From: Psammoneis japonica
Taxonomy: Eukaryota
DNA length: 20,000 nucleotides
Assembly: GCA_008632985.1 (NCBI GenBank)
Contig: QPGO01000155.1
Coordinates: 175,444-195,443 of the forward strand
Reading direction: 5' to 3'
The notes beneath the pieces were generated by a model, which saw nothing but the letters and a program-made list of their open reading frames with translations, did no database searches and was not told where the DNA came from. Position numbers and translations under genes: made by a program. How positions within the stretch are numbered: the stretch's first letter is position 1; every line of letters starts with the position of its first letter. This document shows positions 1-20,000 of this stretch, one piece after another.

Positions 1-1
1 G

Positions 2-337
2 ACGGATCACCGTGCTTCTGAAAGCGACGATCCTATCCACCAGACGGCGTCAGCAGCGGTGGTACCTTCCACACAGATCCCTTCCAACGACGGTGATGTG
101 AGTCTTCCAGACCAGCACGTTGGTGTAGGGGGGTTGTTGGTCGAGACGGAACAGGCGGAAGAAGAAAACGTTCAAGCACCTGCATCCCTCATTACGGATG
201 GTAGTGCTTCTATCATTCCAAGGCGGTCTGCTCGGCTTAGAGCAGCTTTGGGAAGCGTGTACATCCTCTCTACTGACGGGAGAACTCTTCGAAGGTCCGC
301 TAGAATCTTGAACCGGCGAAATGGCGTCTTGCGGTAG
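2..337 (+). CDS. 3' end of a hypothetical protein (open from the window edge) with an acidic low-complexity stretch and twin RRSAR(L/I) motifs
   Basis: Frame +2 is open from base 2 to TAG at 335-337: ...ETEQAEEENVQ...PRRSARLRAALGSVYILSTDGRTLRRSARILNRRNGVLR*. TpA and CpG content is normal and the Tyr codon is intact. No start is visible. Confidence 0.6.
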   Translation, partial: TDHRASESDDPIHQTASAAVVPSTQIPSNDGDVSLPDQHVGVGGLLVETEQAEEENVQAPASLITDGSASIIPRRSARLRAALGSVYILSTDGRTLRRSARILNRRNGVLR

Positions 338-349
338 TTTGAATGCATG

Positions 350-520
350 CGGGAAAGAATGGGGAAAGGGGAGGGCGGGAATCCGATATAGAAAGAGAGA
401 AACGAGCGGGAGTTAGAGACGGGGAATGGAGTATTTAGAAAAGAGAATACGTCGATTTGTAGAGCGGAAGAAAAAGAATCAGAAAAATGGCGAGGCAGGA
501 AGAAGATTGGGTTCAGGAAG
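350..520 (+). other. Purine (G/A)-rich low-complexity tract downstream of the stop codon
   Basis: gggaaagaatggggaaaggggagggcggga...gaaagagagaaacgag...agcggaagaaaaagaatcagaaaaatgg; strong purine strand bias. Confidence 0.5.
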
Positions 521-807
521 ACCTGTAGGTAGTAACACTCACTCTTGCTATTGTTTGCTTTACCGGTTCCGAATGGATGATTTGAATCTGGCGGCGGGTT
601 TTCTGACCATATGCTGGATCCGTGTGTATGAATAATCATGGTGCAGTTGCTTTCGTGAAAGTGGCGATCGGTAAGTTACGGGTGAGCAGCGATATTCTTT
701 TGACTACAGAATCTTCGTGGCGCCTGCAGTTCGGCACATATCACGCACAGCACGTACCTCTACATTCAACATTGCGGATTCGGCATTGTGGGGATTGAAA
801 ACCCAAT

Positions 808-1280
808 TCCTGATTCAATGATTCCTTGTTAGGACTGAAAAAGCACCATTGGCTGTGGACAGTGTGGCGCTTGCACCGTGGACGGATTCAGCCTTGATTT
901 TGCATGGCGTACTTGACATTTTTTTGATAACTCTACTAGTCGGAACATTTTCTGTTGGGCGTTTCACAACGTAGTATGAATTTTGTTAGGAACACTTGGC
1001 GGGCTTACGGAGAGCATTGAAGAAGATGCACGTTCAAATACATGATGAAAGCTCGTACCTTTACCTAACTCATTCTGCAGGCTTTGTTTATTCAGCGTGT
1101 AGTCTACCAAGCTTTGACTCTGTCCAATGCTAGCGGTTCTCGCCTCTTGCAATTCTTGTTGTTCGATCTTATTGACACTGCTGCTACGGAGTAATTCACG
1201 AAAAAAGTCACAAAAATCTTGTCAATTTCCACTCACAACTCTTCAGAGAGAGGTCACCAATCGTCTTAACCGCAGAGATT
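808..1280 (+). repeat. Copy 1 of a diverged direct (tandem) duplication, offset about 680 nt
   Basis: Blocks cctgattcaatgattcctt / aagcaccattg / ggattcagcctt / tagtcggaac / gtagtatga / aggaacact / aggctttgtttattcagc / gtagtctaccaagc / gttctcgcctct / gcaattcttg / caatcgtc / gcagagatt recur in the same order at 1487-1950. Confidence 0.85.
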
Positions 1281-1486
1281 AAATCTACTTCGACTGACGG
1301 CTATATTTGTGATGTATGGGAGCTGCGATCTGGAATTTCTGCCCCGCGTTAGCTCCACAATCGCTGCCCTGTCGATGGATATTCACCCATTTTCAATACC
1401 TAGACAAAGGCACGGTCCGTTTTGAGCCCTGTAGAAGCATCCTACATGGGTGGTGGCGAATGTCAGTTTGGTCCTACTTGTGGATG

Positions 1487-1950
1487 CCTGATTCGATGAT
1501 TCCTTTTCGAGATTGAAAATAAAGCACTATTGACCATGGACAGTCAGTGTGGCGATTGCACCATGGGCGGATTCAGCCTTTTTTTATGAAGTACTTGGCC
1601 ATCTTTTTTAAATAACGCTATTAGTCGGAACGTTGCTGTTTGGGGTTGCACAAAGTAGTATGATTGTGTAAGGAACACTAGGTAGGCATACGTAGAATGC
1701 ATGGTGAAAGCACATACCTTCAATACACTCGTTCCGTAGGCTTTGTTTATTCAGCATGTACGAGTAGTCTACCAAGCACCAAGCCCAATATAAGTAGTTC
1801 TCGCCTCTCGCAATTCTTGCTGTCAGTCTTGTTGGTCACTGCTTCTACGATTTTTTAGAGCGGGACCAGCAATCGTCGAGATACTACGTACAGGCATCTC
1901 ATAGGTTTCCTGCTCCACCAGAAATTACACCAAAATTGACCAGCAGAGAT
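1487..1950 (+). repeat. Copy 2 of the diverged direct duplication
   Basis: Colinear with 808-1280, with indels and many transition differences. Confidence 0.85.
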
Positions 1951-3377
1951 TCGTGACGCAAGGTGGTTGATGGGCTTGGATCTCAAGCTCCTACAAGAGA
2001 TGTCAAACTGATGCTCGTCATGACTCATGGAGGATGCAACGGTAAAACTTCATGACAGTGCCATCGCGTGGGATCCAACATGGCCTCGTGAACTGGACGT
2101 CAACGTAGGACGGTGCATTTCTCTGAACGACATTCTTGAGTGAAGCGAGCCGGTGAGTTTAGCATCGTTGCACCCAGTTCGCTGCTCGTAATCCCTGCGG
2201 GAGAACTCAAGGGTGGCACATTCTGGATCTTCTGCTTCGACCTGGAGGCCTGAAGGACATATTTTTTTCTTGACGCTAAAAGATCATCTCGACTCGTGCA
2301 ACCGGCAGAGAGCCTTTGCGGGATCGACAAAATACACGAAAGAACTGCACTGGCGAGCGACAGAAAACAGCTTTTCGGCAACCTCAAACCGATGCTCTTC
2401 TTTTGATTTTTGATCAAGTTCTGCAGTTGTACTTCTGTTTCTAAAACCAACATGGACTTAATATTCTAAGACCAAACATGGCTGCTATCCTTCACGACTT
2501 GTTGACTCATCGGTACGCACGCCATTGTGCACTCCGCATTTTTTTTGGGCAGGATGTCGTCAGTCCGTCGCTTCTCCGTCAATTTGAACAATCGCTGTGG
2601 TGCGTGGTGCACAGGCTTGTGCGTGGTGCACGACGCGTGCTGTGGTTACGGAGAACGGTCGCGCATTGTCTGTCGGTGGTTGTAGGAACAGTTGCAGTTG
2701 ACTAGATTGTAAAGAACAACATGGCCAATCAAACCAGGTTGCTTTCTCTAGGGCTGAGTGCTTTTCTGGGGGCTGAAAAGCTCTGCAGCCAATCACCCGA
2801 CTTTTCGAAAAACTCACTCCAAAGAACCCCTCATCTTGTTGGGATGCCAACAATCTGGCGGGTCTGTGACCGCCTGCTGCAATCCGGGCATTTCCTGACT
2901 GTAATCCCAGACAAGTGTCTCTCATTGAGTCAGGTTCTTTTTCATTTCAGTTCAGAACCAATTTGGTTTACAGGCTCCTTGTTTCTAAATTGCACCCTGG
3001 AGCCTGCTTTGAACAGCGGCCATGTTCTTGTGCCTCTGCAACCCCGCGTTTGGCCTTTCTTGACAGTCACTGTGTTTGGTCGCTCCTTCATTTCATCTCA
3101 TGCTGCATGTGATGCAACATCAGCACCTGAAATGTCCTTCTAAATTGCATCCATTTGCAGCCCAACAAACAGCATGGTGAGCTTCTCATTGTCACAATGA
3201 AGCAATTGCAGTCAAAGCAAAACCATGAGACTTGGCAGCCTGCGCACCTTTGCTTCCTGTTGCAACATTCCTGAGGTCTGAAAGCTTGGGGAAGAATCTC
3301 TGCAGCTGTTGGTTTCTCTCTCAAATCATCTGCCAAGGGAAGGCCAAAGGATGCCATTGTGAACAAGTGTCTGGATG

Positions 3378-3655
3378 ACTTGCCTGGCATCAAACAAATG
3401 CGATGGACCTTTGCCTGGCATCAAATGAACACAAGGGACCTTTGCTTGGCATCAAACAGCTGCTGAATGCAGCGGACCTTTGCTTGGTGTCAAACAAATG
3501 CAACCTGCCTGTGCTCAGCATTGAAGAATGAATGTGATGTGCCTTTGCTCAGGATTGAATGAACATGGTGCACCTTTGCTGGGGATCAAATGAGTGCCTC
3601 ACTTTGCTCAGCATCAAATGAATGTGACAGATCTTTGCTCAGAGTCAAATGAGTT
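3378..3655. repeat. Degenerate 31-nt minisatellite, about 9 units
   Basis: Unit resembles ctttgc(c/t)(tg/ca)gcatcaaa(ca/tg)aatg..... The tgc(c/t) anchors fall at 3381, 3412, 3443, 3481, 3512, 3546, 3577, 3605 and 3636 (spacings 31,31,38,31,34,31,28,31). Confidence 0.85.
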
Positions 3656-6600
3656 GAATTTGAATTTCACAATGGAGCATCACAAACGCACTTTGCAGTC
3701 ACTTGGCTCTTCATCTCATCCTTGTTCTTTTCACTTCAAGAACTCTAAAATCAGCACTTTGTCAAACCCAGACTGCATCAGCATGACACATTGTTTTAAG
3801 TTTCTGTTTGCTCTGACTTTTCTGGATCACTGAAACTCAGGCAGGAAGCTTTGGAAGACACTGGACAGAATGGGGCTGGGCTTCCGTTTTCAAAAAACAG
3901 CGAAAGCACTTGCATGCTCTTTTGTCTGCTGTGGCTTTGACTGTTTCAATTTGCCTGTCACCAATCAATTGTTCAACACAACAATTGCCGGCAAGTGCCA
4001 GCGCCCCGTGGACTTTTGACAACAGAATCAAGCAACTTCAATCTTTGAGCTCACAGCTCTGCCCTCTCCAGCAGGGAGCACTGCAGCTTGAGAAACCTGC
4101 TGCATCAGCTGCACACACCAACAAAAGCAAAGCAGGAGTGGCCCTGCACTCTCTGAAGCAGTTGCTGAACAATCTCGCCACTGGGTCCCCACAGGAGCTG
4201 TTTCTGTCATCCAAAGAACCATTCATTGTGCACGACTTCATGTTCTCAAGTGGAGTTTCAAGATTTTGCAAAGTTTGCTGTCACATCCAGCACAAAATGT
4301 CAACCAAAATGTGTGCAAACTGTCTCTTTCCTCATGCATTGCCAGCTCTCAAACTCGTTGGTGTGATGGAGCATTTTGACATGGTTGCCCCATTTCGCCC
4401 ACTGGAAGAACCAACATTTCACACTCCTTTGTTGCTTGTTTGTCTCAAAGATGTGCTCCACTTTTGCAAAAAAATGATCATCATCAAGTCCTTCCCTGAT
4501 GAGGGCTTTGATTGCTCCCTTGCTGAACTTCATGTTGGTCCTGCATTTGACACAACACAGAGCTTGTTCACAAAAAGCAGTTTTGTGGCTTTGATTGTGA
4601 GCACTTGTCAGTCATCAGTGCCACATCATCTCAATGGGCAACAGCAGGCACTGCAGGGTGCTTTGCCACCTCCGGGCACAAGCGCACCCTTGTCATCTTG
4701 GTGCCTCAGTGATGAAGGATGAAATTTCATCTCAGGCTGAAAGCTCAACTTGGTGCTGGTCTTCTTGGAGTGTGAGAACTTGTGGCTTTTGTCATCTCTG
4801 CTGCTGGCAGCAACCACAACTTTGGCCTTGGTCTCCAGGCATTTGGCATTCATCAACTGTGTGAGGCCAGTTTCTGCAAGCACTGAACGCAGCACTTGCA
4901 ACTCTTTGGAGTGAATGTTGAACCCACAAGCCAGTGTTCCCAAAAAGGAATCCTGCCAGGCTTTGTGTGCCTCTTGACACACTTGTCTTGGTTGGTGGCA
5001 GTGGCTGTGGTGTGATGAAAGTTGTCAATGTGAACTTCAATCTTGCGGTGCACAACAGGTGCCCAGTGATGCCAAATGACAAACCAAATGATTCCATCCA
5101 AAGAGCAAGATGAAGCTGAAAGGTGAGAGATCAGCAATGGCGAAACTTTTCCCGGTGGTGCATTGAGGGGGTTGCCCATGGTGCATGAAAGATGCAAAGG
5201 CTTCAGACTTTCTTCTTATCAGCTGCTCACAGCAGTTGTGAAACAGCAGAAAATGAAAACTTGCAAGTGTGTGTGGCAAGAGTGAGCACCACATGATGAT
5301 GGGGCATTGGCAGACAGGGCAACAAGCAGTGGCCTCTGCCAGCCAGTGGCTGTGAAGCAGCAGCACAGCACTCACCAAGGAGGGGACACTGCATCAGTTG
5401 TGGGGCTGCCCAGCAGCAGGGCCATCTGTGTGGCACCATCAAAGCAGCAGCAAAAATCACCAGGCATCCCCACATGTTCCACCAACAAGTCCATCTGAGA
5501 GCAGGTGTTTGTCACAACATCTCAGTGACCATGTCAACATCAGACCATTTGAAGGCCAACAGCTGGGTTTTTGATGACTCAGTCAGGTCAAGGAGGACAA
5601 AGCAGTCTGTTGGGACAAATGCATGCTTTCTCTGCTTCCACCTTCTCAGCTTGCTTTTGCAGCCCAAGAGCTCAGGCTCACAGCACAGCAAGAAAATGAG
5701 GCCACTTCAGATGCAAGGAGTTGTTGAGGCAGAGGGGCAATGTCAACAAAAAAGAGCTCTGGGGTGTCATGTTTTGGCGCAGGCTTGCACTGCCACTGCA
5801 CAAGCTGTGCTGCTGCCTTTGAAAGTCAAAACTGTTGAAACAGCAGCAATTTTGGGCAATCTGGGAGCAGCCATGATCACAGTTGGCATCAACGGCTTTT
5901 CAGTTGCTTGGCATGACATCACTTGAAAGTTGCAGTGTGCTCACTGTCATGACAACAAAGGCAAAGCTTTCCTTGGCTGCACATGGTGTGTGCACCTTGC
6001 TTGGGCACAACAAACATTGCTGGCAATTGTCAACCTCACAAGGAGCACACATGCCCTGCATTGAGAGGCACCCCCAGTCCTTTGCAAGGGTGCAGTTTTG
6101 TGGCTTGTGTTCATTTGCTGTGCAGCTGTTGCTCTTGCACTCATGCATCAGTCTTCATCACAGAGCCAACAGGCTTCAGGCTTTCATGCCTGTTGTGGCC
6201 TGATGCTTGCAGCAACAGTTGTTTCCTTTGCTGAAATGGGGTGGTTGGTGCTGCACCACTGCACTTCAATTCAACGGCATCAAAATGAGAGACAAATCAA
6301 CATCTGAGGCCGTTTGCCCAGTTTTTGATCACTTGCACTAAAAGGGTGTCATTTGCTCTCAACTCAAACACCACTTTCTCATCTGCTGAGCTGCTGTTTG
6401 TGTGTTGGTGCAGCTGGGCTGGCTGCATGTGCTGTCAAGCCAATTTTCTGCCTCAATGGCAAGCTCTTCTTTTTCCCATTGCTTGCCAGTCAGACTGGAA
6501 AATTTGAGAACAACAGCCACCTTTGGCACATCTCCATCAACTGGAGGGGGGCAAGACAGGAAGCATCGCCGCTTTTTTCACTGTCCCAAGAACTGGTGAG

Positions 6601-7225
6601 ATGGTTGTGACAGAGAAGAAGTGCCCATTTGATGGCAGGCACATGCTGCTTTGCCTTCAGCACACATCTGCTGGGCTGCATTTTTTTCTGGCAATGTTGG
6701 CACACTTTCAAGGGCAGCAACATCTGCTCTGCCAATGAAGGCCCCCAGCACCTTCTAAAAAGGCAGCTCTCAAACATGCACAATCTTTGCTGCATCAAGC
6801 ATTTTGGGTGGCTTGGTGGAGGCAAACCAGCTGCAAAACAAAAATGGCTCAGAGCATTGCCAACTGCAAAAGAGCCTCAAATGCACAAAACTTTTTGTTG
6901 TCAAGCTTTTTTGTTGAATCCCAACTGCTTTTGTTCTTTTCAGAATGAAGTCCAGTGTGCACATCTCTGCACTTTGTTGCCATGCCAACAACGTCCAATG
7001 TTGGCACCATCACGGCTCACACACTGCCTCTTTGCAAAGGCATCATCACAAGCAGTGGTGCTGCAGAGTGTTTGCATGATGTCCTCTGTCTGGAAGTCTC
7101 TGTGCTGCTGTGCACAAGGAGCCATGTCTGTGGACAATTTGCAAAAGTCGTGCAGATCAGGGCACATGTGCTGTGCTCTCATGGATCTGAAGACAGCTCT
7201 TGGTGGCACCAATGACCCCCCCCCC

Positions 7226-7422
7226 NNNNNNNNNNNNNNNNNNNNNNNNNNNNNNNNNNNNNNNNNNNNNNNNNNNNNNNNNNNNNNNNNNNNNNNNNNN
7301 NNNNNNNNNNNNNNNNNNNNNNNNNNNNNNNNNNNNNNNNNNNNNNNNNNNNNNNNNNNNNNNNNNNNNNNNNNNNNNNNNNNNNNNNNNNNNNNNNNNN
7401 NNNNNNNNNNNNNNNNNNNNNN
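7226..7422. other. Assembly gap (N run) preceded by a C10 homopolymer
   Basis: N characters at 7226-7422; poly-C at 7216-7225. Confidence 0.99.
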
Positions 7423-10400
7423 GTGCCTGACTGTTCTTTGGTCTTTCATGACATGTTTGTTGCAAACATTGCCAGCTCTCATGTCAAGATGGCATTTCAA
7501 GATGGTGCCATTTGGTTGAGGAGCAAGGGCATCTCACCGCCCATGCTGTGAGCATCATGTGGGGAAGGTGTGCAAATCCAGAGCAAGACAGGGAAGCAAA
7601 TCAGCAGAAGAGCCTCTCATTGTGCAGAGCATGGGTGGCCAAAAGAACCAACTGCTGTGTCAGCTCATTTTCTCCACACAAGGGCAACACCATTGTGGCT
7701 GTGATCCTTGTGAAGAGCCCACCCTTGGTTTCCCAAGTTTTGGTTGTGGATTTTTCATTCTTGATTTTGGTGTGAATTTGCTCAAAATTGTGGTTGACAA
7801 TGTTCCGCCATTGCAGAGAATGTGCAGAGGCTTGTTCTTTGCTTTGCCCAAAGAGGTGCTCACATGAGTGATGACTGCTGGACTGGTGTGAATTGCTTTT
7901 TTGGGGCTTCCCAATGTCCAGCAGTGCGCAAGACTCCTCGAGCAGCGCCAGTTCAGAATCACTGCACATCACAAGAAGTGGGATGTGGCGGTGCTGTTGA
8001 AAATTCTCCAGCCAATCTTGTTCTTCAATGCAACTGGGAGAGTCTGCTTGCATGTCTGGGCAGTTGAGGCTTGGAAGCAGTTGGAAATTAATTTGTCAAG
8101 ACAAAGAAAAAGCACTTCCAAGATTGCTGCAATCAGCTCACAAGTGTTTTTGAAATGGCGGAGGGTTTTGTGGCAGGGTTGTCCCAGAAGAAATTTCCAA
8201 GAAAGGAGATGGGTTTAGCACAGATGCCAATGACACCTGGAAGAAAGAGAGGAACAAGTTGTTGGCAGCACTGTCAATGGAAGGTGTCAAGAAACATTGG
8301 CTTGTCTCAAAAGACCTGTGCTGGCAATTTGCACTGGGATTCACAATTGTCCCATTTTGGCCAAGGAGGCACTGCAGGTGTTGGACACAGGCAGGGCCAA
8401 CAAAAAACCTGAGGGCACAAGTCTTGTGCAAAATGAGAAGAAACAGCTCAAATGCAAAAGGTTGGGCATGTGAAAAAGGACTGTCCTTTGCTCAATGACA
8501 ACAGCGATCATTTGTTGGTGGAGACACATGACATCAGCTGTGGAGAGAAACAAGGCAGTCAATGTGGCACTGGATGGCATGGTTTTCAAGTGTTGTCCTC
8601 CTGCAGCCAGTGTGCATGAGGCCAATCCATTGATGGTGGCTTGTGCAAAGGAGTGTGTTGGAACATTGGGGAGCAAGGCAGTTTTCAACAATTGTGGATG
8701 AGGTGAAGTTGCACTCACATGAACTTTTTGTGAGTTGTGGGTCTTGTGCTCACTTTTCAGCTTTTGCACCTGCTGGCCAACATGGCAACAGTGGCAGCGG
8801 CAATGGAAATGCGGTGTTTGCAATCCACATGCGGCAAGTTTGGGGATCAGTGAGACCAAGTGTGTGCCACATTCAGCAAGCTGTGGAATCACAGCACCGC
8901 TGCAAGACCCCCCTCTGAAGTTTTTTTTGGCACAACAGGCTCCTGCAAAAGGTCAAAAGTGCCCACAAGTGGCCAATCAAGGTCCCACACAGAAAGCATG
9001 CAGGTCCAAGGAAAGGAAGCCATTCTGAACATTTTGGCCCAGTGTCACAAGGCCAATCTCAAAGCCACCAACAGCTGTTCATTTTCACTGTTCCATGCTG
9101 AAATTCACATGTGTGGTGCGTCATCCACAAAAAGGCTGCCCCCACACTTGGAAACCAAAAAGGCATTTTCTGTGCTTGTCATGAGAGAAAAAAAACATGA
9201 TGCTGTTGGTGCGCACACACTTCTTGATGCAGACAATGCTGTCTTGCACCTTGATCAATGGTGCGACAACCAACACATGATCAAAGAACAAGCCCCATGG
9301 CAGAAGATGCAGCATCATTGTTTGTTGTGCAATGTGCATTGCATTGGGCACAATTTCAAGTTGTGACATCATGCACCATGGAAATTTGTGGCTTTTTGTG
9401 CAGTGATGAAGCACAGCACAGTGAACTTGACACCTGCCAAGAAAACAGCAAGCATGCAAGAGCTGCATGTGAGCCCAAGACTCGGCCTCAACTTGCCAGG
9501 ATGTGGTGGTGCAAAGTGCTCAAAGTTGCCACAAGGATGTTCAGATTCTCAGCTTGCCAAAGTGAGGTGACTTTGCCAAATCTGACCTGCCAACCACCTG
9601 GAGAGGCCAGGTGCCACCCTGTCCTCTTCTTGAACAACTCTGAGCTAAAGCCTGCCAGCCAACATGCAAAGGAAAAAGTTGAGAAGGCTGGGTGGTTGTC
9701 TGCCAGGGAGTCTGAGCATCTGATGGCTCAATTGCACAGATGCACCTGCTGCTTGGCTGCTTTAAAAAAGAAAGAGCTGTGCAGAAACAAGTGTGAGACA
9801 ATGAGCATGCTTTTGCGAGATTCTTGCTGGCAATGGCACATGTGCCATGCTGGCAGACACACCAGACAACTTGTCAATCTGCAGAAAAATGCAGCAATTG
9901 GCAAAAGTGCGCCACTCACAAGTGTGCTTGTTTTGTTTGGCAATGGGGCCTGGATTTGACTTCATTCTAGAGTTCCCCAATTTTGCAGCAGAGCTGCAGA
10001 AAGTCTCTCCCACACACACACCAGATGACTTGTTCATTGAACAAAGCAAAGCAAGGGATTTTTTTTCTGACAGAGTGGCAAAATCATGCTCAACAGGAGC
10101 AAAAAAAAGATCCACATGTCTCTCTTTCTTTTTCAACACAGACAAAACCAACAAAAAAGAGGGTGCTGCAGTGTGGCAGTCACCAAGCAAACAATTTTGC
10201 AAAAAGTGTTTCCAAAGAAAGTCTGTTGGGCCTTGTTTGAGCTTTTGAGCAAGGGGGGCTCTGGGGGGCACAATGCAGCAAGAGAAGCAGAGCTGGTTGG
10301 AGGCAGCATGATGATGTGTGTTGTGCAAGCAAGTTTGAGTGGTGGACCTTTCCCCAATTTTTGTTGCTTCTTTTCTCATGTTTGATCATTTTAAAGTGCT

Positions 10401-11077
10401 TGAGCAGTGTGAACAATCTTTAAAAGGTGGTCATTTTTCCTGAAAACAAAGTGACAGGAACAAGCTGCTGTGTGGCTGCCACTGGTTTTGCTGCCTCTTG
10501 GAGCCATTTTTTTTGTCTCTTCTGCTGCATTTGGCTGTTTTTAACAAGAAATGTCAGCATTTTTTACAGTGCAACAAGGAGCTCAGATGCAAAAAGTGAC
10601 TTTCTAACTGAAGTCATTTGGACAGAACAATCAGGAGAGCTGAGTTTTGCTTTTTTTGGTGCACACCATTGGCTGTCAGAAAGACCAAGTGGTGGTTCGC
10701 TGACCTGTGTGGGAGTCTTGTGGGTGATCTGCATGCTGGCATTGAAAAAAGTTTGTTGACTGTGAAGCAACTGTGCAATGTGAAAGACAGCAGAAGAGGT
10801 GACAACAAAATGTTGACAAATTTCAATGCTTGGAAAAGAAGTTTTGCCTCAGACAAGTGAAGCAAAATGGCCACAACATCTGGACATTGCCAATGTTTTT
10901 CATCTGGCTTGCAACATTGGACACTTGTTGCACTTGCCCACGGCATTTTGGTTGTCATGCACCACCAAAGCTGAGTGCAAAATCTCTCTTTTTTGTTTGC
11001 ACAAAAAAAATTGATGTCATCCATGACAGCACAATGCAAAAAATGTGCAAGTGCATGAGTCACCAAGACACTCTCCT

Positions 11078-11146
11078 GTTGTTGTTGTTGTTGTTGTTGT
11101 TGTTGATGTTGATGATGTTGATGATGTTGATGATGACGATGATGTT
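11078..11146. repeat. Compound trinucleotide microsatellite (GTT)9 grading into (GAT/GTT)n
   Basis: gttgttgttgttgttgttgttgttgttgatgttgatgatgttgatgatgttgatgatgacgatgatgtt. Confidence 0.95.
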
Positions 11147-12689
11147 TGCAGCTGGTGCCAAGTTGACAGAGACAAGGGTTGTGAAGAGAAATCTAAAGGA
11201 GTTCCAGAAAGAAAGACACCAAGCATGCAAACATCAGCGAGCTCTCCACAAAACAAAACAAAACAAAGCCACAAAGAGCAACTCAAATTGCAGCCAAATG
11301 ACCAAGTGGGCTGCAGCCTTGGGCTGTTGACCTGTCTTAGAAAATGAAAGTTGCCTTCTCACCTTGGTTGCAACAGCTGTTGGTTCATAAATGGCAGGGT
11401 TCATGGCAGCAGCATGGTGCATTTTGGTGTGCGCAACTTGCAACTTGAGTCACACAAAACACATCATCTTCATTTTGGAGCTCAGCAGTTTTCTTGCGCG
11501 GGTTTGGCACCAAACATGATGCAGAACACACAGAAACAAACCAAAAACCTCATGATTCATTCTAAAGTTTCTCATTTGGAGATCTGTCTGCCCCAGCAGT
11601 GGTGAGCTGCAAGTGGCACAATGCCAGCAAATGGCAGTTCCATGCACAAGCACTGGCCAACCTTTGCGAGACTGGAGGGCTTTGTTGTTTTGCAGCCACG
11701 TTTCTGTGTGAATGTTGGCACAACAAAGTTTGTAAAAATGCCCAGCTGATTGACAAAAACATTGCACACTGCACTCAAAAGTGTGCTGGCTGGCACAACT
11801 GCTGTTGCACTGGATGTTTGCAGGCACTCAGCACACAAGAAAGAGAGGCAAGTTTGGCGCCAATGTTGGCTCCTCCTGTCATGGTGGTGAGTTCCCCCAC
11901 CCAAGCAACCATGGGCTGCTTTGACTGGCAATCATCATGATTTTGCCTCAGTCCAAGTTCCAAAGACACACGCCATCAAACACACACTGGAAACCTGCCT
12001 CTGTTGTGTGGGGCGGGGAAGACCTCACAACAAGAATGACTTGGCTCCGGCAGATCACTCTGATTCGCAATGAGGAAGAGAGGATCCACTCGCCCTTGAC
12101 AGACAACTGAAGTGACCACTGCAATGGTGGCGACAATGTGTTTCAAAGAGTCAAATGGCAATTTTGTGTGCTTTGTGCAACTGACAACTGAGCAAAGTTT
12201 GTCCAGGGTTCAAATGGCACGAGCTCCGAACTCCCGAGACTTCCTTCCTGCAGCTGGATCGCACAACAACAGCACTGCGGTCAGCAAGCAAGACAATGAC
12301 GATGGTGCTTCTGTGTCGCGACGACGACTCTTTGTCTCTTCCTTGGTGACAAACTCATCCATCATGGCTGAGGACAGCACAGTCACAATGCCTCCTTTTG
12401 TCCGTTTGCATGTTCCTTTCATCATGCGTGACAACAACGCATGCCATTGAGCCGGTGCGTTTTGAGGATCTTCTCAGCAATGAAGAACATCGTCATGCAG
12501 CCTCACCACCCTAGACCGAGAGCCCGAAGGATGTGAAAGAACTCTACACAAGTCAGCCATTGGATCACTTTTCTATGGAGGAACTTGTGTCTGACGCTGA
12601 AGGATCTTTGCAGCAGCGGTGCTTCTATTCGGATCGATGCGCAAGGTCATCTTCAACGCATGGAACTTCGTTTTCATCCTTGTGGCAGT

Positions 12690-13545
12690 CTTTGTGGCCC
12701 TGAAAGTGGCGAAGAATGGTCAAGCTTGTACACAACAAGCAGCTGTGGAGATTGGTGTCTTTGGGACTGAGAAAAGACAAGGATTTCTTGGCCATTAACG
12801 TCAAAGCGAAAACCGCAAGATGGTGCACCTGCAATCGTACAGTCCGCATCAGAATCACCTTTGCTTGGTGTTTGAATTGTTGGGGATGAACACACAAGAG
12901 GTTTTGAATCAGCGGCAGTTCAGAGGGTTGCCCTTGACAAAGGTTCGGCCGCTGCTGTTGAAAACAATGGACGGCAGCGTGAAGGAATTGTGTTGGCGAT
13001 CAATTGTTCGACCGAGAAGGATTTTGATTCAAGCAATGTCAAGCCAATTGCTTTCGGTTCGGCTTGCTGTGAAGGACACACGGCTCACACCTACATTCGA
13101 TCTCGGTTTTACCGCAGCCCCAGAAGTTCTTCCACTCAAGGGCCACCCTGCGATTCTGCTTTTTGACATGTGGTCCTTGGGACGCGTGGCGGCAGAACTG
13201 TTCCTCGGATTGTCCATTGCCTCACGGTTATGAACACGATTGGGTGAGGCGAATTTGTGAAACAATTGAACCCATTCCAGACATTGCGCATGCTTGGCGA
13301 AAGGTGCGTGTCATTCTTTTTATTTGATGCTTTCTGTTGAACGGACGCATGTGCTAATTTGTCGTTGCACGCTGCTCGTCGTTGTTCAGTGCTAAATTTG
13401 TCCAAGCACTTTGCAAACTCCATTTCCAAGTCAGAAACTACTTCAACTCCGATGCAGCCACAAACCGGCACAGACAGCGACAAGAAGCCATCATGTTCGC
13501 CTCCACCTAAACAATTGTGGCGCATCAAGACACAGCGAGAATGTG
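12690..13545 (+). pseudogene. YAK1: YAK1/DYRK-family (CMGC) protein kinase pseudogene
   Basis: Motifs across frameshifts: VALKVAKNGQACTQQAAVEIGV (subdomains II-III), HQNHLCLVFELLGMN..EVLNQRQFRGLPL, FGSACCEGHTAHTYIRSRFYRSP/EVL, GHP..DSAF/DMWSLGRVAAELFLGL, YEHDWVRRICETI..IPD, LSKHF, LWRIKTQREC. The HCDLKPEN catalytic loop is deleted or garbled and no glycine-rich loop was found. Confidence 0.88.
13304..13389 (+). other. Spliceosomal intron (86 nt) in the kinase pseudogene
   Basis: AG|GTGCGT donor at 13304, GCTAAT branch-point-like motif at 13353-13358, TTCAG acceptor ending at 13389. Kinase similarity stops and resumes at these points. Confidence 0.7.
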
Positions 13546-13629
13546 TGCGACCCTCTTTTCCGTCAAGAGTTTTCCAATTGCCATTCTTTTTGTCGTCATG
13601 GGTCATGGGTGGTCTGGCACGATTTTGCT

Positions 13630-14332
13630 TTAAAATGCGGCGCCCGTGTTCAACCAAACCCCTTGTTGCTGAGCACGACCTTGGACAAACACATCTTCCA
13701 TGACAGCAGTCACGGCTTCCATTTCAGATGGATCTTCGCTCGCGTCGGAAAAGCTCTTGACAAGGGCGTCCTGAAGTGGTTTGGGCAAGTTCCGGTTGCC
13801 GCGAACGCAAAGCATGCCGTTGGCACGCTCACGCAACAACGACGGGCATCATCGGCAATGGCAACCAAGTCCTGCACGTGTGTCTTGCCGTTCTGAGGCA
13901 TGGCCTGCATCGTCAACAGCATCAGCACAAGGCGACAATGGACAGGTGTTGGCAAAGTGTCGAGTGAGGTGTGCAGTGTCACCTGATCCGACTCAAGCAA
14001 CACCTTCAAGGACGCGTCCTCCTCGGCACCAAATGATTTGTAACTGGCCGCGAGCTTCTTGGGATGCTTTTTTATCCTTTGTCGGGTCCTCAACGATTGT
14101 TGATGTTCTGATGGAGACCGCCCTTGAGATTGTCGACCAAGCCTGAAAACGGGCCTGGTGGATTCGTGCGGCACATGAGATGCTTGATGCTGATGGTCGC
14201 AACCTGTTTGGCAATCTTTGGACAAAGTAGACGCTCTTGACCAACAACCTGGCACTCAATGACAGTCTTAATTACCTCACTTGCACTGTTGGCGGATGAT
14301 TGCAAGTGGACGATGTGAAATCGAGTTTTCAA
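13630..14332 (-). pseudogene. Frameshifted remnant of an unknown protein-coding gene
   Basis: Overlapping minus-strand ORFs read as one helical protein across frames (SANSASEVIKTVIECQVVGQERLL... / IKKHPKKLAASYKSFGAEEDASLKVLLESD... / LPKPLQDALVKSFSDASEDPSEMEAVTAVMEDVF). No family recognised. Confidence 0.35.
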
Positions 14333-14944
14333 AAGCGCGAAAGAGATGTTCTGATTACAGTGCGTTTTCTAATTTTTGTTTTGTTTTCATGATCTTGATC
14401 TGCAGGCCTGACACTCTACAGCGCGCCAACTGATCCCTCTCGAGCCCCAGTCCCAGTCCCATGCCCCATGCCTGCCATGCTAAACCCAACAATCCGTGAG
14501 CTTCTACCCTTGCACGCAAAAAGCCCATCTAATGTTTGTTTCTCGTTTTCTCATTCTATTCCGCCAGTCCTGCAATGGTTTTCGACTTGAACATTGGAAC
14601 AAGTGTTGCTGCTGTTCAACATTGGCTTTCAGAGGCGATCTAGATCTTGCATTCTCTTCGACCGGCACACAAAACCAGTTCCGAAACGGCGGCCAACTCA
14701 CATGTGTCCTCTTGACAATGCATGCCTCAATGCGAGATCTGGACAGCCTCTTCCAACTTTGCTGCTGCAGTTTAAACTCGAGTGCCAAGATGCAAGTGAA
14801 TGCACACCACAAGCTGACATCTGAAACAATTTCTGCCCAACACATCTTCACGACAATGCAGGCCTGAACGAAAAATAAGATGCACAACCACAGACGATCT
14901 TCTCCACCCGCAACAGCAAAAAACTCAGCCTCGTCGCACTCCCC

Positions 14945-16030
14945 CACAACTCGGGAGCCGGACATTCCTCCAGGCACTTGTCAATCGTCTGCCTCTCGCT
15001 CCCATCCATGCATTTAATGTCGCAACACGCCACGAGATCATCATCAAAGTAAACCCTGAGAATCTTGGCCAATGCACGAGTGTTGTTGCGGCAGTGATGC
15101 ACGTCTTGGCCCTTCTCGTACTTGGACGTCGGTTTTTTGGGGGCGGGAGATAGATTCTTTTCTTCTGTCTGTCGCTCTCTGCCGTTGGAGAAGAGGATGG
15201 TGTAGCGCGGAGTTTTGTCGTCAAGGGTGAATGCCAATGATCTTGGCAGAAGCGACGTCGTTGGCATTGCTGTTCGTGCACTTGACGTTCTCACCGACTT
15301 TGCACTGGGGCTTTGGAGGGCTCGGCTTGTGAGGCGATGCTTCAATGTCGTCTTTTTCTGACGTTGGTGTTTTTGGGATGGGCGATGGATTCTTTTCAAC
15401 CGTCTGCCTCTCTCTGTTGTTAGAGAAGAGGACAGTGTAGCATGGAGTTTTGTCGTCGCGGTGAACACTGATGATTTTGGCAGAAGCGACATCGTTCGCA
15501 TTGTTGTTCGTGTGCATGACGTTCTCGCCGATTTTGTGCTGGTGCTTTGAGGGCTCAGCTTGGGAGGCGATGCTGCGATGTCGTCTTTTTCTGACGTTGG
15601 TGTTTTTGGGATGGGCGACAGATTCTTTTCAACCGTCTGCCTCTCTCTGTTGTTAGAGAAGAGGATGGTGTAGTGCGGAGTTTTGTCGTCAAGGTGAATG
15701 CCAATGATCTTGGCAGAAGCGACGTCGTTGGCATTGCTGTTCGTGTACAAAACTCTCTCACCGACTTTGCACTGGTGCTTTGGAGGGCTCGGCTTGACAG
15801 GTGAAGCTTGGACATTGTCTTTTTCTGGTTTGACGTTGCAGTGGCACTTCGGAAGGCTCGGCTTGGGAGGTGAAGCTTTGACGTTGTCTTTTTCTTTAAA
15901 ATCGACGGAGGGTGGGGGGTTGTAGTTTGAAGACGGCTCGTGAGCCACTCCACTGTTGGAAGCAGTGCCGTCAGCAGAGCTGAACGCAAGAAATGGAACA
16001 TCAAAGAAAGAAGGTGACGTTGGAAGCAAG
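14945..16030 (-). pseudogene. Frameshifted gene for a protein with four Tudor/SH3-like repeats joined by Pro/Lys-rich linkers
   Basis: Three near-identical units (x-K-VGE-V-x-TNSNANDVASAKIIGIHLDDKTPxYTILFSNNRERQTVEKNLSP) plus a diverged fourth (YEKGQDVHHCRNNTRALAKILRVYFDDDLVACCDIKCMDGSERQTIDKCL). Linkers are of the EKDxxxASPxKPSPPK type. There is a -1 nt lesion near 15548 and a +1 nt lesion near 15225. The fold assignment is from pattern recognition only. Confidence 0.75.
15130..15830. repeat. Three tandem ~234-nt coding repeats, plus an extra ~66-nt linker repeat to ~15895
   Basis: ggagttttgtcgtc at ~15209, ~15444 and ~15678; ttggcagaagcgac at ~15243, ~15477 and ~15710. Confidence 0.95.
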
Positions 16031-16640
16031 CGTCATGACAACAGGCAGCACAACAAGAGCAACAAAAACTTACGATGCAAATGGCTCATTGACGTCGTAA
16101 CGACACGTCTTGCGTTGCGCCTCCACAAAGTGGCTGCGACGAACGTGGGGAGGCTGGTTAAATTCAGAACAATTCCACCTTGTCTGCTTGGGCAATGCCG
16201 TAGTAAGGATCGCACAGAGCCAGAGGAGAAATGCAACCACAAAGGTTCGGACGATGATCCAGACGTCGATGTTCCTCAACAAGCAACACAAGACGAAGCA
16301 GAGCACCGCGCACACTGGGAACTCTTTAGGATCCCTGCGCAGGCAAGAAATGGCTCGGCCACAGTCACCAATGAGAAACAAAGCGTTCAAGAAGAGGAAA
16401 GCGTACAACATGGTGACATTGTTGATGCGATGCTTTACTTTCTTGCCAGAACTGCGATTGTGAGACGAAGAAAGCACATGGGAAAGTGCGTGCTTGCGCA
16501 CTTCAGATTTTCGCGTGCAGGGAATCGTGCCCGCGAAGTGGCAAGTTGGTTTTGACACAATTTAAACCGGCACTGGGTTTGATCCAAGTAATCATCTCGA
16601 ATCCAAACTCGGAATGCCGCCACAATCTTCATCGTCATGG
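16030..16640 (-). pseudogene. Hydrophobic multi-TM segment, possibly the decayed N-terminal part of the Tudor-like repeat gene
   Basis: Hydrophobic runs MLYAFLFLNALFLIG, AVLCFVLCCLL and IIVRTFVVAFLLWLCAILTT. ORF 16033-16242 is in frame with ORF 14848-16029, separated by one TGA that could derive from CGA. Possible start MTMKIV near 16638. Confidence 0.4.
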
Positions 16641-18109
16641 CCACAGCACTTTTTCTTTGCTCGTTTGCTCCTGACGCGACTTCGCCACAAGTTTGTGAGG
16701 CAACAAATGTGTGTCGTGCTTTCCGTTGACATGCACATGAAAGACACATCATACATTGGTTGTGGGGCTGTTGATGGACAAAATTTTTGTGCTGTTGATT
16801 GATCACTTTTTCGCATGCACTGCCCTGCCAGCGCCTGACCGCACCACAAGACCATGGTCAACACTTTGCTGCTGCGGTCCGGAATCTCTCTCTCAGCAAA
16901 ACCACCTGACACCCTTGCTTTACAATCGCCAGGGGATCGCTGGAAATGACTGTGTCTGGTTTTTTCTCAGATGACCTGCATCCTGTGCAAGGTGGCTCGT
17001 GGAGTGAGTTCCATGCTCTTTGTCCAGCCAGGATGCCAGGAACTTGTGCGATCTGCACGCAATGGTTTCGATCATGCAAGAGCTTCAGAACCATCCCGAT
17101 CACATGGAGATCAGCTTCCAGTCAGAAGAACATTCAAGTCTCCAGATCTGGGGATCTTTCTGAACATGGTTCCACAATCTCCATGGATTGGCTGCTTGTG
17201 CGACGTTGCTTGCTTTGACGGCATCTCCTGTTGCGAGCATGCTGTCAATGCAAAGCTTTGTGGATTCTTTGGATTCTGCTGTTGTTGACCCAACAACAGG
17301 GTCTCATGATTTGACCACTGCACATTGCACCAGTTGCTCAACTTTGTGGAACGAAAAGACCCAGAAACCGGAAATGTCGCTTTTGATGCTGTTCGGACAG
17401 GCATTTTTCGAGATGGGAATGTGGTGCAGTTTGACCCCTTGTCTCCTGCAACGGAACAACCAACATGAGGTGCCTCTGCCTCCTCCCAAAGGTCCAGGTG
17501 GATTGCAGCTGCAGCACCTGAACGGGGCACTGCGTGGCTTCGGATTTGCCCTTTCGGTCATTTTAATTCTTCTTTCCATTGCATTTGGGGTCTGAACCAT
17601 CCGCTGCAGAATGGGCAGAGTCATCAAGGCGTCACAGCCCATTTTCTTGCTTTCAACATGTGGCGGTGTCTTGTCAATGGGGTGGGTCATTCTGTGTGAT
17701 GCTGCAGCCATCTGTGTTTTGCCGCATTGAGTGAAGACAGGGCTCGTGCAATGTTTCCATTGCGCACTCTTGTTTGTGTTGTTGAGGTTGGCCATCATTC
17801 CTTGCATTTCAACATCAAAATTGAGAGCAAAGCGAGATGGATGAGATGTTTCTTCTCAAAGCACACCTTGGCTGTTCATCCTTGGTTTCATTCTTGCGCC
17901 AATGGTCGCTCTCCTGCTTGTTGATGCGGAGACGCTCACAATTTCAATGGGATGGATCTCTTGGCATGGGAGCATGGGCCACTCCAAATGGATGTGTGTG
18001 GGCAGACAGTGGAGACAGGAGGAGCCAGCAAGTCTGACTTGTTTGAAGGGTGCGTGTCTGTGCCAGCCATTGCCAAACACAAGTGAATTGGCAGCAGGGC
18101 TTCCCATGT

Positions 18110-18830
18110 CATCCGGGATGTGGGCAAAACTTTTGTCACTTCTCTCAAATCTTGCGAGTGAGTTTTCAAGTGTTCTGCAACAGGCAAAGTGGAGAGGAGT
18201 GCTTTTCAAGTGCAGAGGAAGTGTGGATTCATTCCAGTTGAGTTTGCCCTGGGCCCGTCTCTTGATCTAGAGAGTGCAGCCAAGGCTGACCCCGAAACCT
18301 TTTCTGAACATCTGTTTGGATCTGCCAGTCGCAGTGATGATGTGCACAAAGATTTTGGATGGAAATCAATTGGGATGCTGAAAGCAATGATTGGGCAGGC
18401 TGCAGGAGGGATGGTGGCTGGGACACAACAAGCAGCAGTGATGACATGGTCGAGAACCATCACATTGAGAGCACTTTGGATCAAAATGTCAAGGAAATGA
18501 ACAAAGAATGCAGTGCCAAAGGAATTGAATGTTGCTGCACATTTTCCAATCTTAGAGGAGATGTGACTTTGATTGCACCTCGCCCAGAGGAGTCTGTCTC
18601 CATTGCTCAGAACATTGGATTCGCGCATCTTGCCAAATGTGTTGAGCAGAGATCCTCAGAAGAGGCAGGAGAGCTGAAGTCTTTGGTTGCAAGAGAGTGT
18701 GATGAGATGCCAATGAAGCACAGGGGCTCAAATCAACTGGCATTCCTGTCCACAACAAATGACTTGGTGGTTCATTTTTGCATTTCCAACTGGAGCAACT
18801 TTCAAAGTGTTGCCACTGTGAAGCATTCTG
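18110..18830 (+). pseudogene. DUF6940-like protein pseudogene
   Basis: Across frames: SEFSSVLQQAKWRGVLFKC, VEFALGPSLDLESAAKADPETFSEHL, TFSNLRGDVTLIAPRP, FAHLAKCVEQRSSEEAGELKSLVA, AFLSTT / LGGSFLHFQLEQLSKCCHCEAF. These match my recollection of the family pattern FEFVL..ADP.AF.EH, F.NLGGDA.L..P, Y.HLA.F, WLSTSGLGV.WLH.RLD..PKYY.Y. Confidence 0.75.
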
Positions 18831-18884
18831 TCTGGCATTGGAATCAGCAAGTGCGTGAGAAAATTTTGTTTGCTCAGCGGCGTG

Positions 18885-19515
18885 ATTCCATCTTGGCATT
18901 GCTCGGTGACATCAGGCTTGTCTCAAACCAATTCACTGCATTTGAAAAGACATTGTTTGTTGTCGGAAATCAGGAGATGTGCAACATCCAAGGCAGGAAA
19001 TCAAGAAGGGTTTCGGGGCAGCGGGGGTGGTGGCTTGCATGCAGAGGAGAACAAGATTTGCTGGAGAAGGAGGCACTGGATGTTTGTGGTGTCCGTGTGT
19101 TGGGAACATCACTGTGGTCAGATGCCGCAGTGCAGGCCGAAATGTCAATGAATGAGCAGCGCGCTTTGTCATTCACCCAAACGGACGATGGCACAGAGCT
19201 TCAAAATTATCAGCAAAAAAGAAACAATTCAATGGTGTCGAGAAAATCTGCAGTGGTTGCGGGATGAATTGGTTGAGGCACCGCATGAAGGGATTCTCAC
19301 CACATGCCTCAATTGGAAGGGACTGGCCATCCCAGGTGTGATGTTGCTTTTCATCCGATTTGACCAAGCTCCTCTCATTCCCAATCAGTCTCCAGAAATG
19401 TGGTCACACCTGCTTCAATTTCATTGGAAACACACATCCACTCTCCAACCAGTGGGGTTGTAAAGCCCATGAGAAGCCTGGTCATTGTACAGATGGTTTG
19501 GTGGTTGGAATCAAC
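18885..19515 (+). pseudogene. Calcineurin-like metallophosphoesterase pseudogene (N-terminally truncated, internally deleted)
   Basis: ILALLGDI (GD motif), FEKTLFVVGNQEMC (GNHEYY-like), LEKEALDVCGVRVLGTSLWS, SMNE, LQWLRDEL, CGHTCFN (GHTH-like), SNQWGC (SNQxGY-like). The first DxH motif is absent and there are several frameshifts. Confidence 0.8.
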
Positions 19516-19619
19516 CAAACCCCAGTGCTGTTGGGGAGGAGACAATGAGTGTGCTGACAGGATTGGAGGTGAAGTTCAGCAGGCACGGTCAAGCTCAGTG
19601 CATCCATTCTGGTTCTGAT

Positions 19620-20000
19620 GTCATGTTGGCTTCTGTGTTGCACATCCTGACTGGGCAATCATCAAGAGATGCTCTTGGAAACTGGATGCATCATGTGCCT
19701 CATGGCGCAACTTCTTCAAACATCTTGCTGCCAACTGAGTGCTGTGCGCAGCTCTTGCCCAAGCCCATGGCATCGGCACACCCGGCATTTGACCAGATAA
19801 ATCCATTGGACAAACAGCGTTGCAATCTCATTGACCGCACTTCATGAGCATCCAAGTTTTGTGCCAAAGCCACCACAACATCAGCTTGCACCTGTGTCTG
19901 TTCCATCATTTCTGCATCGGCTGTGAGGTTCTTGTCATTGCCCATGATGGAGGCCCCTGACTCTGTGCCACAGTCACATGACAAGGCTTGCTTCATTTTG
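19620..20000 (-). pseudogene. Possible decayed coding fragment running off the window edge
   Basis: Protein-like text KNLTADAEMMEQTQVQADVVVALAQNLDAHEVRSMRLQRCLSNGFIWSNAG; no family recognised. Confidence 0.25.

Follow-up and report, generated by a model that had tools for sequence, protein, structure and literature searches.

The 20,000-nucleotide (nt) stretch analysed here (positions 175,444 to 195,443 of contig QPGO01000155.1 from Psammoneis japonica, forward strand; hereafter the window) carries on its minus strand the remains of a repetitive gene in which one and the same dinucleotide position reads TG in one repeat copy and CA in another. Three tandem units and a fourth, diverged one (U1 to U4, Table 1) belong to a gene copy in decay and consist of repeated Tudor-like domains. 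Tandem Repeats Finder describes the array as a 233-nt period with 2.9 copies and 83% matches at 15125-15796, and each unit encodes a stretch of about 56 residues and, after it, a Pro/Lys-rich linker, as in CKVGERVLYTNSNANDVASAKIIGIHLDDKTPHYTILFSNNRERQTVEKNLSP. The frame is shifted in U1 by a 1-nt deletion near 15549/15550 (CCCT-CAAAG) and that of U1 is regained in U3 through a 1-nt insertion at about 15227 (CACCCTTGAC), so that U2 and the initial third of U3 are read in a different frame from the remainder; because of these two frameshifts the full protein cannot be made from this gene copy. Several short GT..AG introns ending at 15980 are candidates for joining the putative start codon in frame to the repeats, and several donors would fit. 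U1 together with its upstream part, searched at 88-282 aa against a set of 5.8 billion proteins, gave no match. Decay is most visible at the conserved Tyr codons of the four units, 11 of 16 being lost: five still encode Tyr, and the others now read Cys (TG, six codons), His (CA, four) or Arg (CG, one). In U4, for instance, the V-x-Y motif has become V-H-H (CAT CAC) and P-Y-Y has become A-C-C (TGT TGC).

The units are predicted to encode a Tudor-like barrel. AlphaFold, given an alignment of 10 sequences, models U1 with a predicted local distance difference test (pLDDT) score of 91.9 as a five-stranded barrel whose Foldseek neighbours are Tudor domains, namely ERCC6L2 (6hq9_B, TM-score 0.84) and PHF20 (3qii, 0.80), then TDRD3 (3pmt) and SMN (1g5v), the TM-scores to these four ranging over 0.74-0.84; the best Foldseek E-value was 2.6e-3, with none at or below 0.001. 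The model shares with Tudor and chromo-barrel domains a five-stranded SH3-like barrel that is superposable on solved Tudor domains, and the conserved aromatic residues of the units presumably lie at the position of the Tudor aromatic cage. Unlike curated Tudor sequence models, this repeat family has no match in Pfam above threshold: no family reached its cut-off with the units (DUF1918, for which the cut-off is 24 bits, scored 14.8-16.4), and the homologue P0002 scored 23.5 bits on Tudor-knot without any single passing stretch. With U1 as query, 1.84 billion representative proteins yielded 38 matches at 34-51% identity, and a profile made from these picked up 97 domain instances in 37 proteins. 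Among the 20 of the 38 matches that were looked up, the named homologues belong to Cylindrotheca closterium, C. fusiformis, a Bacillariaceae metagenome-assembled genome and Thalassiosira punctigera, the sole non-diatom being a Blastocystis protein with 19 copies. The domain pattern Y-x-x-G-x-x-V-x-Y ... H-L-D-D-x-x-P-Y-Y-x-I ... G-x-E-K-Q-T delineates a family without a Pfam model, with sources in diatoms, Blastocystis and metagenomes and in arrays of 2-19 copies.

An initial annotation of the window had pointed to four homologous sites in the units at which copies alternate between TG and CA, and had read them as TA dinucleotides hit independently on opposite strands after the duplication. 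All 13 minus-strand codons that it cited are exactly as given, that is, TAC/CAC/TGC at site 1 (V-x-Y), TAC/TGC/TGC/CAC at site 2 (the repeat start), CTA/CTG/CCA at site 3 (KN-L-SP) and CAC/TGC/CGC at site 4 (TP-x-Y, the P-Y-Y motif). Read along the unit, U2 carries CAC at the start, CAC at Y11, TGC at Y35 and CCA at L53, and U3 carries TGC, TGC, CGC and CTA at the four sites. All four sites are present, but four is an undercount: the 180 shared alignment columns of U1 to U3 hold seven dinucleotide sites with both TG and CA, the additional ones lying at columns 68-69, 71-72 and 105-106. Four of the seven are purely TG/CA, two also occur with TA and one also with CG. When columns were shuffled, the mean number of such sites was 0.67 and the maximum 5, and none of 20000 shuffles reached seven. 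Synonymous TA steps were mutated as well (ACT|ATC to ACC|ATC, TCT|AAC to TCC|AAC and CTA to CTG).

The seven sites leave open in which direction the change ran, and the DNA of the three units alone is not decisive on whether TA or CG was ancestral because each is one step from both TG and CA. It is the protein outgroup and the regional loss of TpA that decide between the two. Residues at the cited sites were therefore read in the 97 domain instances of the profile. The repeat start is Phe in 51 and Tyr in 35 instances, the Tyr of V-x-Y is Tyr in 92 of 94, and the first Tyr of P-Y-Y is Tyr in 51, Phe in 31 and Arg in 2, with the second Tyr of that motif as a reference (Tyr 93, Phe 4); this agrees with the earlier expectation that P-Y-Y was the motif at site 4. 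The Leu of KN-L-SP is Leu in 82 and Ile in 11 of 94, and never Pro. A fifth TG/CA site, in Y-T-I/V, is Ile in 78 and Val in 19, which fits ACT|ATC better than ACC|GTC. From outgroup residues of Tyr/Phe, Tyr, Tyr/Phe, Ile and Leu it follows that the ancestral codons were TAC, TAC, TAC, xxT|ATC and CTA. TA rather than CG is thus the ancestral state at these sites, and the CGC of U3 at site 4 is a double change of TAC. The initial annotation had named Arg, His or Cys in an intact homolog as what would speak for CpG decay; the homologues have Tyr/Phe, Tyr, Tyr/Phe and Leu instead, with Arg in 0-2 of 94. Its proposed direction, from TA to TG or CA, is supported by both the outgroup residues and the regional TpA loss.

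The rate of change at TA is correspondingly distinct. Substitutions were counted with TA taken as ancestral at the five outgroup-supported sites and with a majority rule elsewhere, two unpolarised doublets being excluded. TA positions underwent 15 transitions and no transversion in 42 nucleotide-copies (transition rate 0.357), CpG 3 transitions and 2 transversions in 66 (0.045), and all other positions 13 transitions and 10 transversions in 420 (0.031), so that the positions other than TA together show 16 transitions and 12 transversions. The excess at TA is significant (Fisher p = 3e-10), and with outgroup polarity mutation at TA was about 11-fold as frequent as at CpG or at A/T in other contexts. 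Outside TA, A/T positions (8 transitions in 240 nucleotide-copies) and G/C positions (8 in 246) changed alike, and the effect is restricted to TA. Even a majority rule that dispenses with the outgroup yields 5 of 24 at TA vs 26 of 516 (p = 0.009). The changes at TA are strand-symmetric: on the coding strand, T>C was counted 8 times and A>G 7 times. CpG is not the source of the alternation in the units, where CpG observed/expected (o/e) is 1.09 at 15121-15771 vs a TpA o/e of 0.20, and the remark that many CpGs are intact in these copies was accurate.

As to the timing of the hits, the claim that they were independent and followed the duplication holds in part. In the nearly identical 3' halves of U1 and U2, the youngest pair, two of seven substitutions constitute a TG vs CA difference at the Leu codon where U3 keeps CTA, and this difference clearly postdates the last duplication or conversion. 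On the other hand, U1 and U3 share an identical outcome at all five sites where both are mutated. The units are moreover mosaic, U1 resembling U3 in its 5' half (7 substitutions over alignment columns 0-116) and U2 in its 3' half (7 substitutions from column 108 to the end). Because of these common outcomes and the mosaic structure, some TA changes must predate the last duplication or conversion; they were inherited or spread by conversion, and hypermutation and duplication were interleaved.

The alternation in the units is very probably the local trace of TpA-specific hypermutation that extends over at least 17 kb. For the window as a whole, o/e is 0.15 for TpA, 0.47 for CpG, 1.69 for CA and 1.57 for TG, and the loss of TpA is confined to a tract lying beside normal DNA. 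Expressed as rho, for which the formula is our own reading of the accessible Methods of the Bigelowiella natans preprint cited below, so that values may differ slightly, TpA stands at 0.63-0.77 in 1-2000 and switches to depletion at about 2.7-3.1 kb. Four GT-AG-bounded segments skipped as introns within 1-2700 hold 6-11 TA each. In 3001-12000 (8.8 kb) the TpA frequency is 0.000-0.005, and TG (1022) and CA (1020) are equally abundant. The sub-tract at 12001-17000, which contains a kinase pseudogene and the Tudor-repeat gene, has lost TA and kept CG, and TpA loss is for this reason separable from CpG decay. In 3001-12000 and 17001-20000 the plus strand has 19 TAA and 5 TAG, so that stops are practically TGA only; with TAA and TAG gone, long open reading frames (ORFs) arise in all six frames. 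Within the tract, two 31-nt tandem repeat arrays lie at 3380-3654, just inside the TA-free part, an assembly gap of 197 N occupies 7226-7422, and a TGT/TGTTGA microsatellite is found at 11077-11146.

Table 1. Positions of features in the window, with strand where a feature is read on one strand
Feature	Position	Strand	Remarks
Unit 1 (U1)	15539..15771	minus	233 nt; Tudor-like domain and Pro/Lys-rich linker
Unit 2 (U2)	15305..15538	minus	234 nt; out of frame vs U1
Unit 3 (U3)	15121..15304	minus	184 nt; linker short
Unit 4 (U4)	14953..15120	minus	diverged copy; repeat start still TAC
Linker-only 69-nt repeats	15763..15895	minus	upstream of U1; Tandem Repeats Finder; TGC/CAC alternation too
Candidate start codon (MSHLHRKFLLLLLCCLL...)	16087..16089	minus	putative
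Normal region	1..2700		TA 115, CG 148; introns included
TpA-depleted tract	2750..20000		runs past window end; 83 TA in 17 kb vs 121 TA in first 3 kb
TpA- and CpG-depleted sub-tract	3001..12000		21 TA, rho 0.00-0.07; 61 CG, rho 0.04-0.21; no recognisable gene
TpA-poor, CpG-normal sub-tract	12001..17000		TA 55, rho 0.11-0.23; CG 264, rho 0.68-0.98
Last 3 kb of window	17001..20000		TA 7; CG 65
YAK1/DYRK-type protein kinase pseudogene fragment	12799..13230	plus	weak Pfam kinase match; parts in different frames
ORF with DUF6940 match	18341..19264	plus	Pfam, E = 1.3e-7

The TA dinucleotides that survive in the tract have a characteristic context. In 3001-12000, 20 of 21 lie in TAA/TTA, vs 39 of 115 in 1-2700. 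Read on both strands, the 3' neighbour of the A of TA is A in 26 of 42 cases in 3001-12000 vs 43 of 230 in 1-2700, and a pyrimidine in 4 of 42 vs 125 of 230. In the units, the least-changed unconstrained TA is C-TA-A (changed in 1 of 3 copies), and the change is on the strand whose A precedes G. These figures from one window suggest a 3'-neighbour rule in which TA may be lost in the order TAY > TAG > TAA. Regeneration of TA from TG or CA was considered as a cause of the survivor context and rejected, as TG in the tract is mostly followed by C or T.

Comparison with contigs of the public run X1 provides a view of variation within the tract. On the window, 1311 pieces were placed at 90% identity or more, 920 of them below 99%, and their summed depth is not copy number. 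Many diverged look-alikes of the tract occur, chiefly at 7.3-9.3 kb and 12.7-16.7 kb. X1 contigs match TA-free stretches without a difference, for example at 4707-5093, and X1 is possibly the assembly's own data. In 3.9-9.2 kb (27 of the 40 differences listed among 417), eight differences exchange CpG with TG or CA and two exchange TA with TG; among the listed differences there are also three adjacent TG<>CA doublets (5513-14, 7702-03 and 7812-13). This is the pattern expected for two hypermutable, short-lived intermediates, CG and TA. In run X2, copies about 92% identical to the 12.7-16.7 kb family are found.

The kinase pseudogene extends over 12100-13300 on the plus strand with its conserved blocks in different frames, and its nearest named homologues, diatom kinases, are 43-59% identical over parts of the query. 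Names are given for part of the matches only; for the kinase fragment they come without exception from diatoms (Attheya, Thalassiosira, Fragilariopsis, Phaeodactylum, Cylindrotheca, Nitzschia, Skeletonema and Seminavis), and no Bigelowiella protein is among the named homologues of either the kinase fragment or the Tudor-like domain. An alignment of the pseudogene to two homologues proved too frame-broken for a clean count of TA changes. The ORF at 18341-19264 has one ENA homologue, which carries a calcineurin-like phosphoesterase domain, and its Atlas neighbours are metallophosphatase-like with scores of 0.89-0.90, which may serve as a lead; this ORF, which lies inside the TA-free tract, is probably what mutation has left of a metallophosphatase. 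Pfam searches of the 86 ORFs of at least 90 aa returned the weak kinase match, DUF6940 and otherwise matches at chance level, and no viral or transposon domain was found among them, a result to be read with the caveat that heavy mutation may hide the origin. A search of a phage collection gave no match, and scans for Rfam families and tRNAs found none. A dinoflagellate source, with 5-hydroxymethyluracil at TpA, was considered and dropped, as no spliced-leader motif was found with up to 3 mismatches and the named homologues are from diatoms. Outside the tract, contigs of run X2 skip GT..AG segments on the minus strand at 328-542, 650-757, 952-1058 and 1636-1717. One X2 contig covering 758-2521 on the minus strand skips three segments, like a spliced transcript, and no long ORF was seen in it. 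This locus has normal composition, and one segment of it is present twice at a distance of about 660 nt (1037-1188 vs 1696-1849).

Several of our results weigh against TpA hypermutation as the source of the alternation. A model with CG as ancestor fits the DNA of the three units about as well (25 transitions in 108 nucleotide-copies), and the polarity comes from a protein profile at 34-51% identity rather than from an intact, closely related paralogue; at columns 68-69 and 71-72, two of the seven doublets, the outgroup gives no polarity. In P-Y-Y, the second Tyr has kept its TA in all three units. The counts are small and non-independent, owing to the five common outcomes of U1 and U3 and to the mosaic units, so that the Fisher p-values overstate the contrast. 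In 3-12 kb the excess of TG and CA has a second source in CpG loss.

The alternative closest to the data is CpG decay, under which the sites were CGC (Arg), CCG and the like, deamination of methyl-cytosine gave TG and CA, and TA arose as a later second step. CG is indeed one step from both products and is retained by U3 at site 4, a CG-ancestor model gives 25 transitions in 108 nucleotide-copies, and CpG is hypermutable in 3-12 kb (rho 0.04-0.21), where it accounts for eight of the 27 listed X1 differences. The residues of the homologues are nevertheless Tyr/Phe, Tyr, Tyr/Phe and Leu (Arg 0-2 of 94, Pro 0 of 94), the CpGs of the units are stable, and seven hypermutable CpGs would have to stand beside eleven inert ones; we consider this explanation very unlikely. 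A reversed polarity would resemble repeat-induced point mutation (RIP), a process that in ascomycete fungi changes C to T at CpA in repeats and enriches TpA. A single path of two steps connects TA, TG and CA, and on it parsimony allows any root; the region is also repeated. RIP would nonetheless leave TpA enriched, not at rho 0.00-0.23 across 17 kb, and Tyr and Leu are ancestral at the sites, so that C>T at CpA/TpG as the origin of TA is extremely improbable. TpA is mildly under-represented in most genomes and phages are known to avoid short words. TA might have been removed by selection as harmful (for example because nucleases or transposases target it or because it destabilises mRNA) instead of by faster mutation. 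The changes, though, destroy conserved aromatic residues in an already frameshifted copy, depletion is strongest where no gene is recognisable, neighbouring introns keep normal TA, and selection would not yield equal numbers of TG and CA without transversions; its probability is very low.

A-to-I editing at the RNA level by an ADAR-like enzyme with 5'-U preference, followed by retrocopying, would bring together the fit of the ADAR neighbour preference to UA (as cited in the available text of 10.64898/2026.01.13.699255) and the many look-alike contigs. It should however give TG on the sense strand only, in conflict with 8 T>C vs 7 A>G in the units and with TG 1022 vs CA 1020 in 3-12 kb; the copies, in addition, follow one another in a single gene, whose region retains sequence resembling introns, which makes this route very improbable too. 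A sequencing or assembly artefact, by miscalls at a modified base or by collapse of paralogues in the tandem array, could be entertained because both frameshifts lie in short C runs, because of the 197-N gap and because many diverged contigs fall on the repeat region. The bias is present in part of the window and absent from 1-2700, X1 contigs match TA-free stretches exactly (with the reservation on X1 given above), and miscalls should fall without regard to the homologous codons of the four units, so that such an artefact is very improbable. Long-read miscalls at modified bases were specifically rejected, the bias being regional and the length of the N gap apparently estimated and not fixed. 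Conversion or unequal exchange does occur among the units, as their mosaic structure indicates, and GC-biased gene conversion among repeats was weighed on that ground; there is no general AT>GC excess to go with it (8 of 240 for A/T outside TA, 8 of 246 for G/C) and the effect is TA-specific, which renders it extremely unlikely.

TpA-specific hypermutation is the reading retained here. The sequence shows that the changes took place in the DNA itself, are A:T>G:C at TpA, affect both strands alike and are regional, and the hypermutation very probably struck a tract of at least 17 kb. Since TA is palindromic, a change of the A of either strand (equivalently, of the opposite T) gives TG or CA, and homologous TA in paralogous units were driven independently to TG, to CA or, after two changes, to CG. 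The tract was probably marked for hypermutation as duplicated, silenced or foreign DNA. The candidate agent is an adenine deaminase (ADAT2/TadA type) that acts on DNA, as proposed in the accessible part of the B. natans preprint, or else some modification of the T in TpA that is mutagenic; the products of the two are identical and cannot be separated by sequence. It is possible, if rather doubtful, that TpA hypermutation is no oddity of a single chlorarachniophyte but a regional silencing system shared by distant algae of the SAR group (stramenopiles, alveolates and rhizarians), here in a diatom-like stramenopile, acting through a symmetric heritable mark on the palindromic TpA, comparable to the marking of CpG by cytosine methylation, with mutation as a by-product. 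By a 3'-neighbour rule with TAY first and TAA last, it would kill duplicated or foreign genes through loss of Tyr codons and of TAA/TAG, with CpG decay in old tracts until only TG and CA are left.

Such a process matters because an A:T-targeting mutation at one dinucleotide in chosen regions opposes the usual GC-to-AT bias. The window contributes independent, sequence-internal evidence on direction, its paralogous copies being polarised by a protein outgroup; it also presents, over 9 kb, the end state in which TA as well as CG has been erased, and hints at an extended target motif. There are practical consequences as well: in TGA-only tracts, long ORFs in six frames are not genes, and changes of Tyr to His or Cys and of Leu to Pro in TpA-hypermutated tracts should not be taken as adaptive.

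Among known systems, RIP likewise acts on DNA as a regional, context-specific transition hypermutation that ruins duplicated sequence and leaves a dinucleotide signature. Its chemistry and direction are opposite, as here A>G at TpA removes TpA. CpG decay by cytosine methylation resembles the present case in that a palindromic dinucleotide turns into TG and CA, with alternation between paralogues and allelic doublets, and it is active in 3-12 kb; in the units, by contrast, it is TA that is labile, CpG being stable. The closest parallel comes from the alga Bigelowiella natans, in whose mutation-accumulation lines integrated viral or foreign sequences undergo TpA>TpG/CpA hypermutation according to the accessible text of a preprint (Mettrop et al., bioRxiv 10.64898/2026.01.13.699255). 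In two integrated viral regions, mutations arise there at about 6e-7 per site per generation, and 230 of 231 are A>G or T>C, all of those on TpA; the genome contains 124 clusters of windows poor in TpA and rich in CpA+TpG, and an ADAT2-like deaminase was proposed as the agent (10.64898/2026.01.13.699255).

The features in common between B. natans, as described in the portions of the preprint at hand, and the present window are TpA-only transitions on both strands, raised CpA+TpG and tracts lying beside normal DNA; the window agrees with that description in each feature examined, demonstrable foreign origin excepted. The B. natans type is further characterised by a mutation rate about 1000-fold raised in the tract. 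The B. natans cluster thresholds, as given there, are reached here by 13 of the twenty 1-kb windows, ten consecutive ones at 3001-13000 and three consecutive ones at 17001-20000. The TpA frequency in 3-12 kb resembles that of the B. natans subgroup of low-TpA coding sequences (mean 0.0018), and the depletion is far deeper than in the active nucleocytoplasmic large DNA virus region of that alga (rho 0.45). There are also differences: the targets here are host-type pseudogenes (Tudor repeats and a YAK1-type kinase) and not recognisable virus or transposon genes, half of the tract has also lost CpG, and neither this loss nor the 3'-neighbour pattern of surviving TA figures in the available preprint text. 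No report of a TpA hypermutation signature in diatoms was found in the literature searched, in which the B. natans preprint was the closest match, and the parts of the diatom transposon literature covered by a term search are silent on hypermutation, on dinucleotides and on deamination. For both recognisable genes, the closest homologues that carry a name are from diatoms and not from Bigelowiella, which probably places the process in the diatom lineage, whose members are major marine primary producers. TpA hypermutation has so far been documented in one 2026 preprint on one alga, and the tract described here most likely represents a new lineage in which it has operated.

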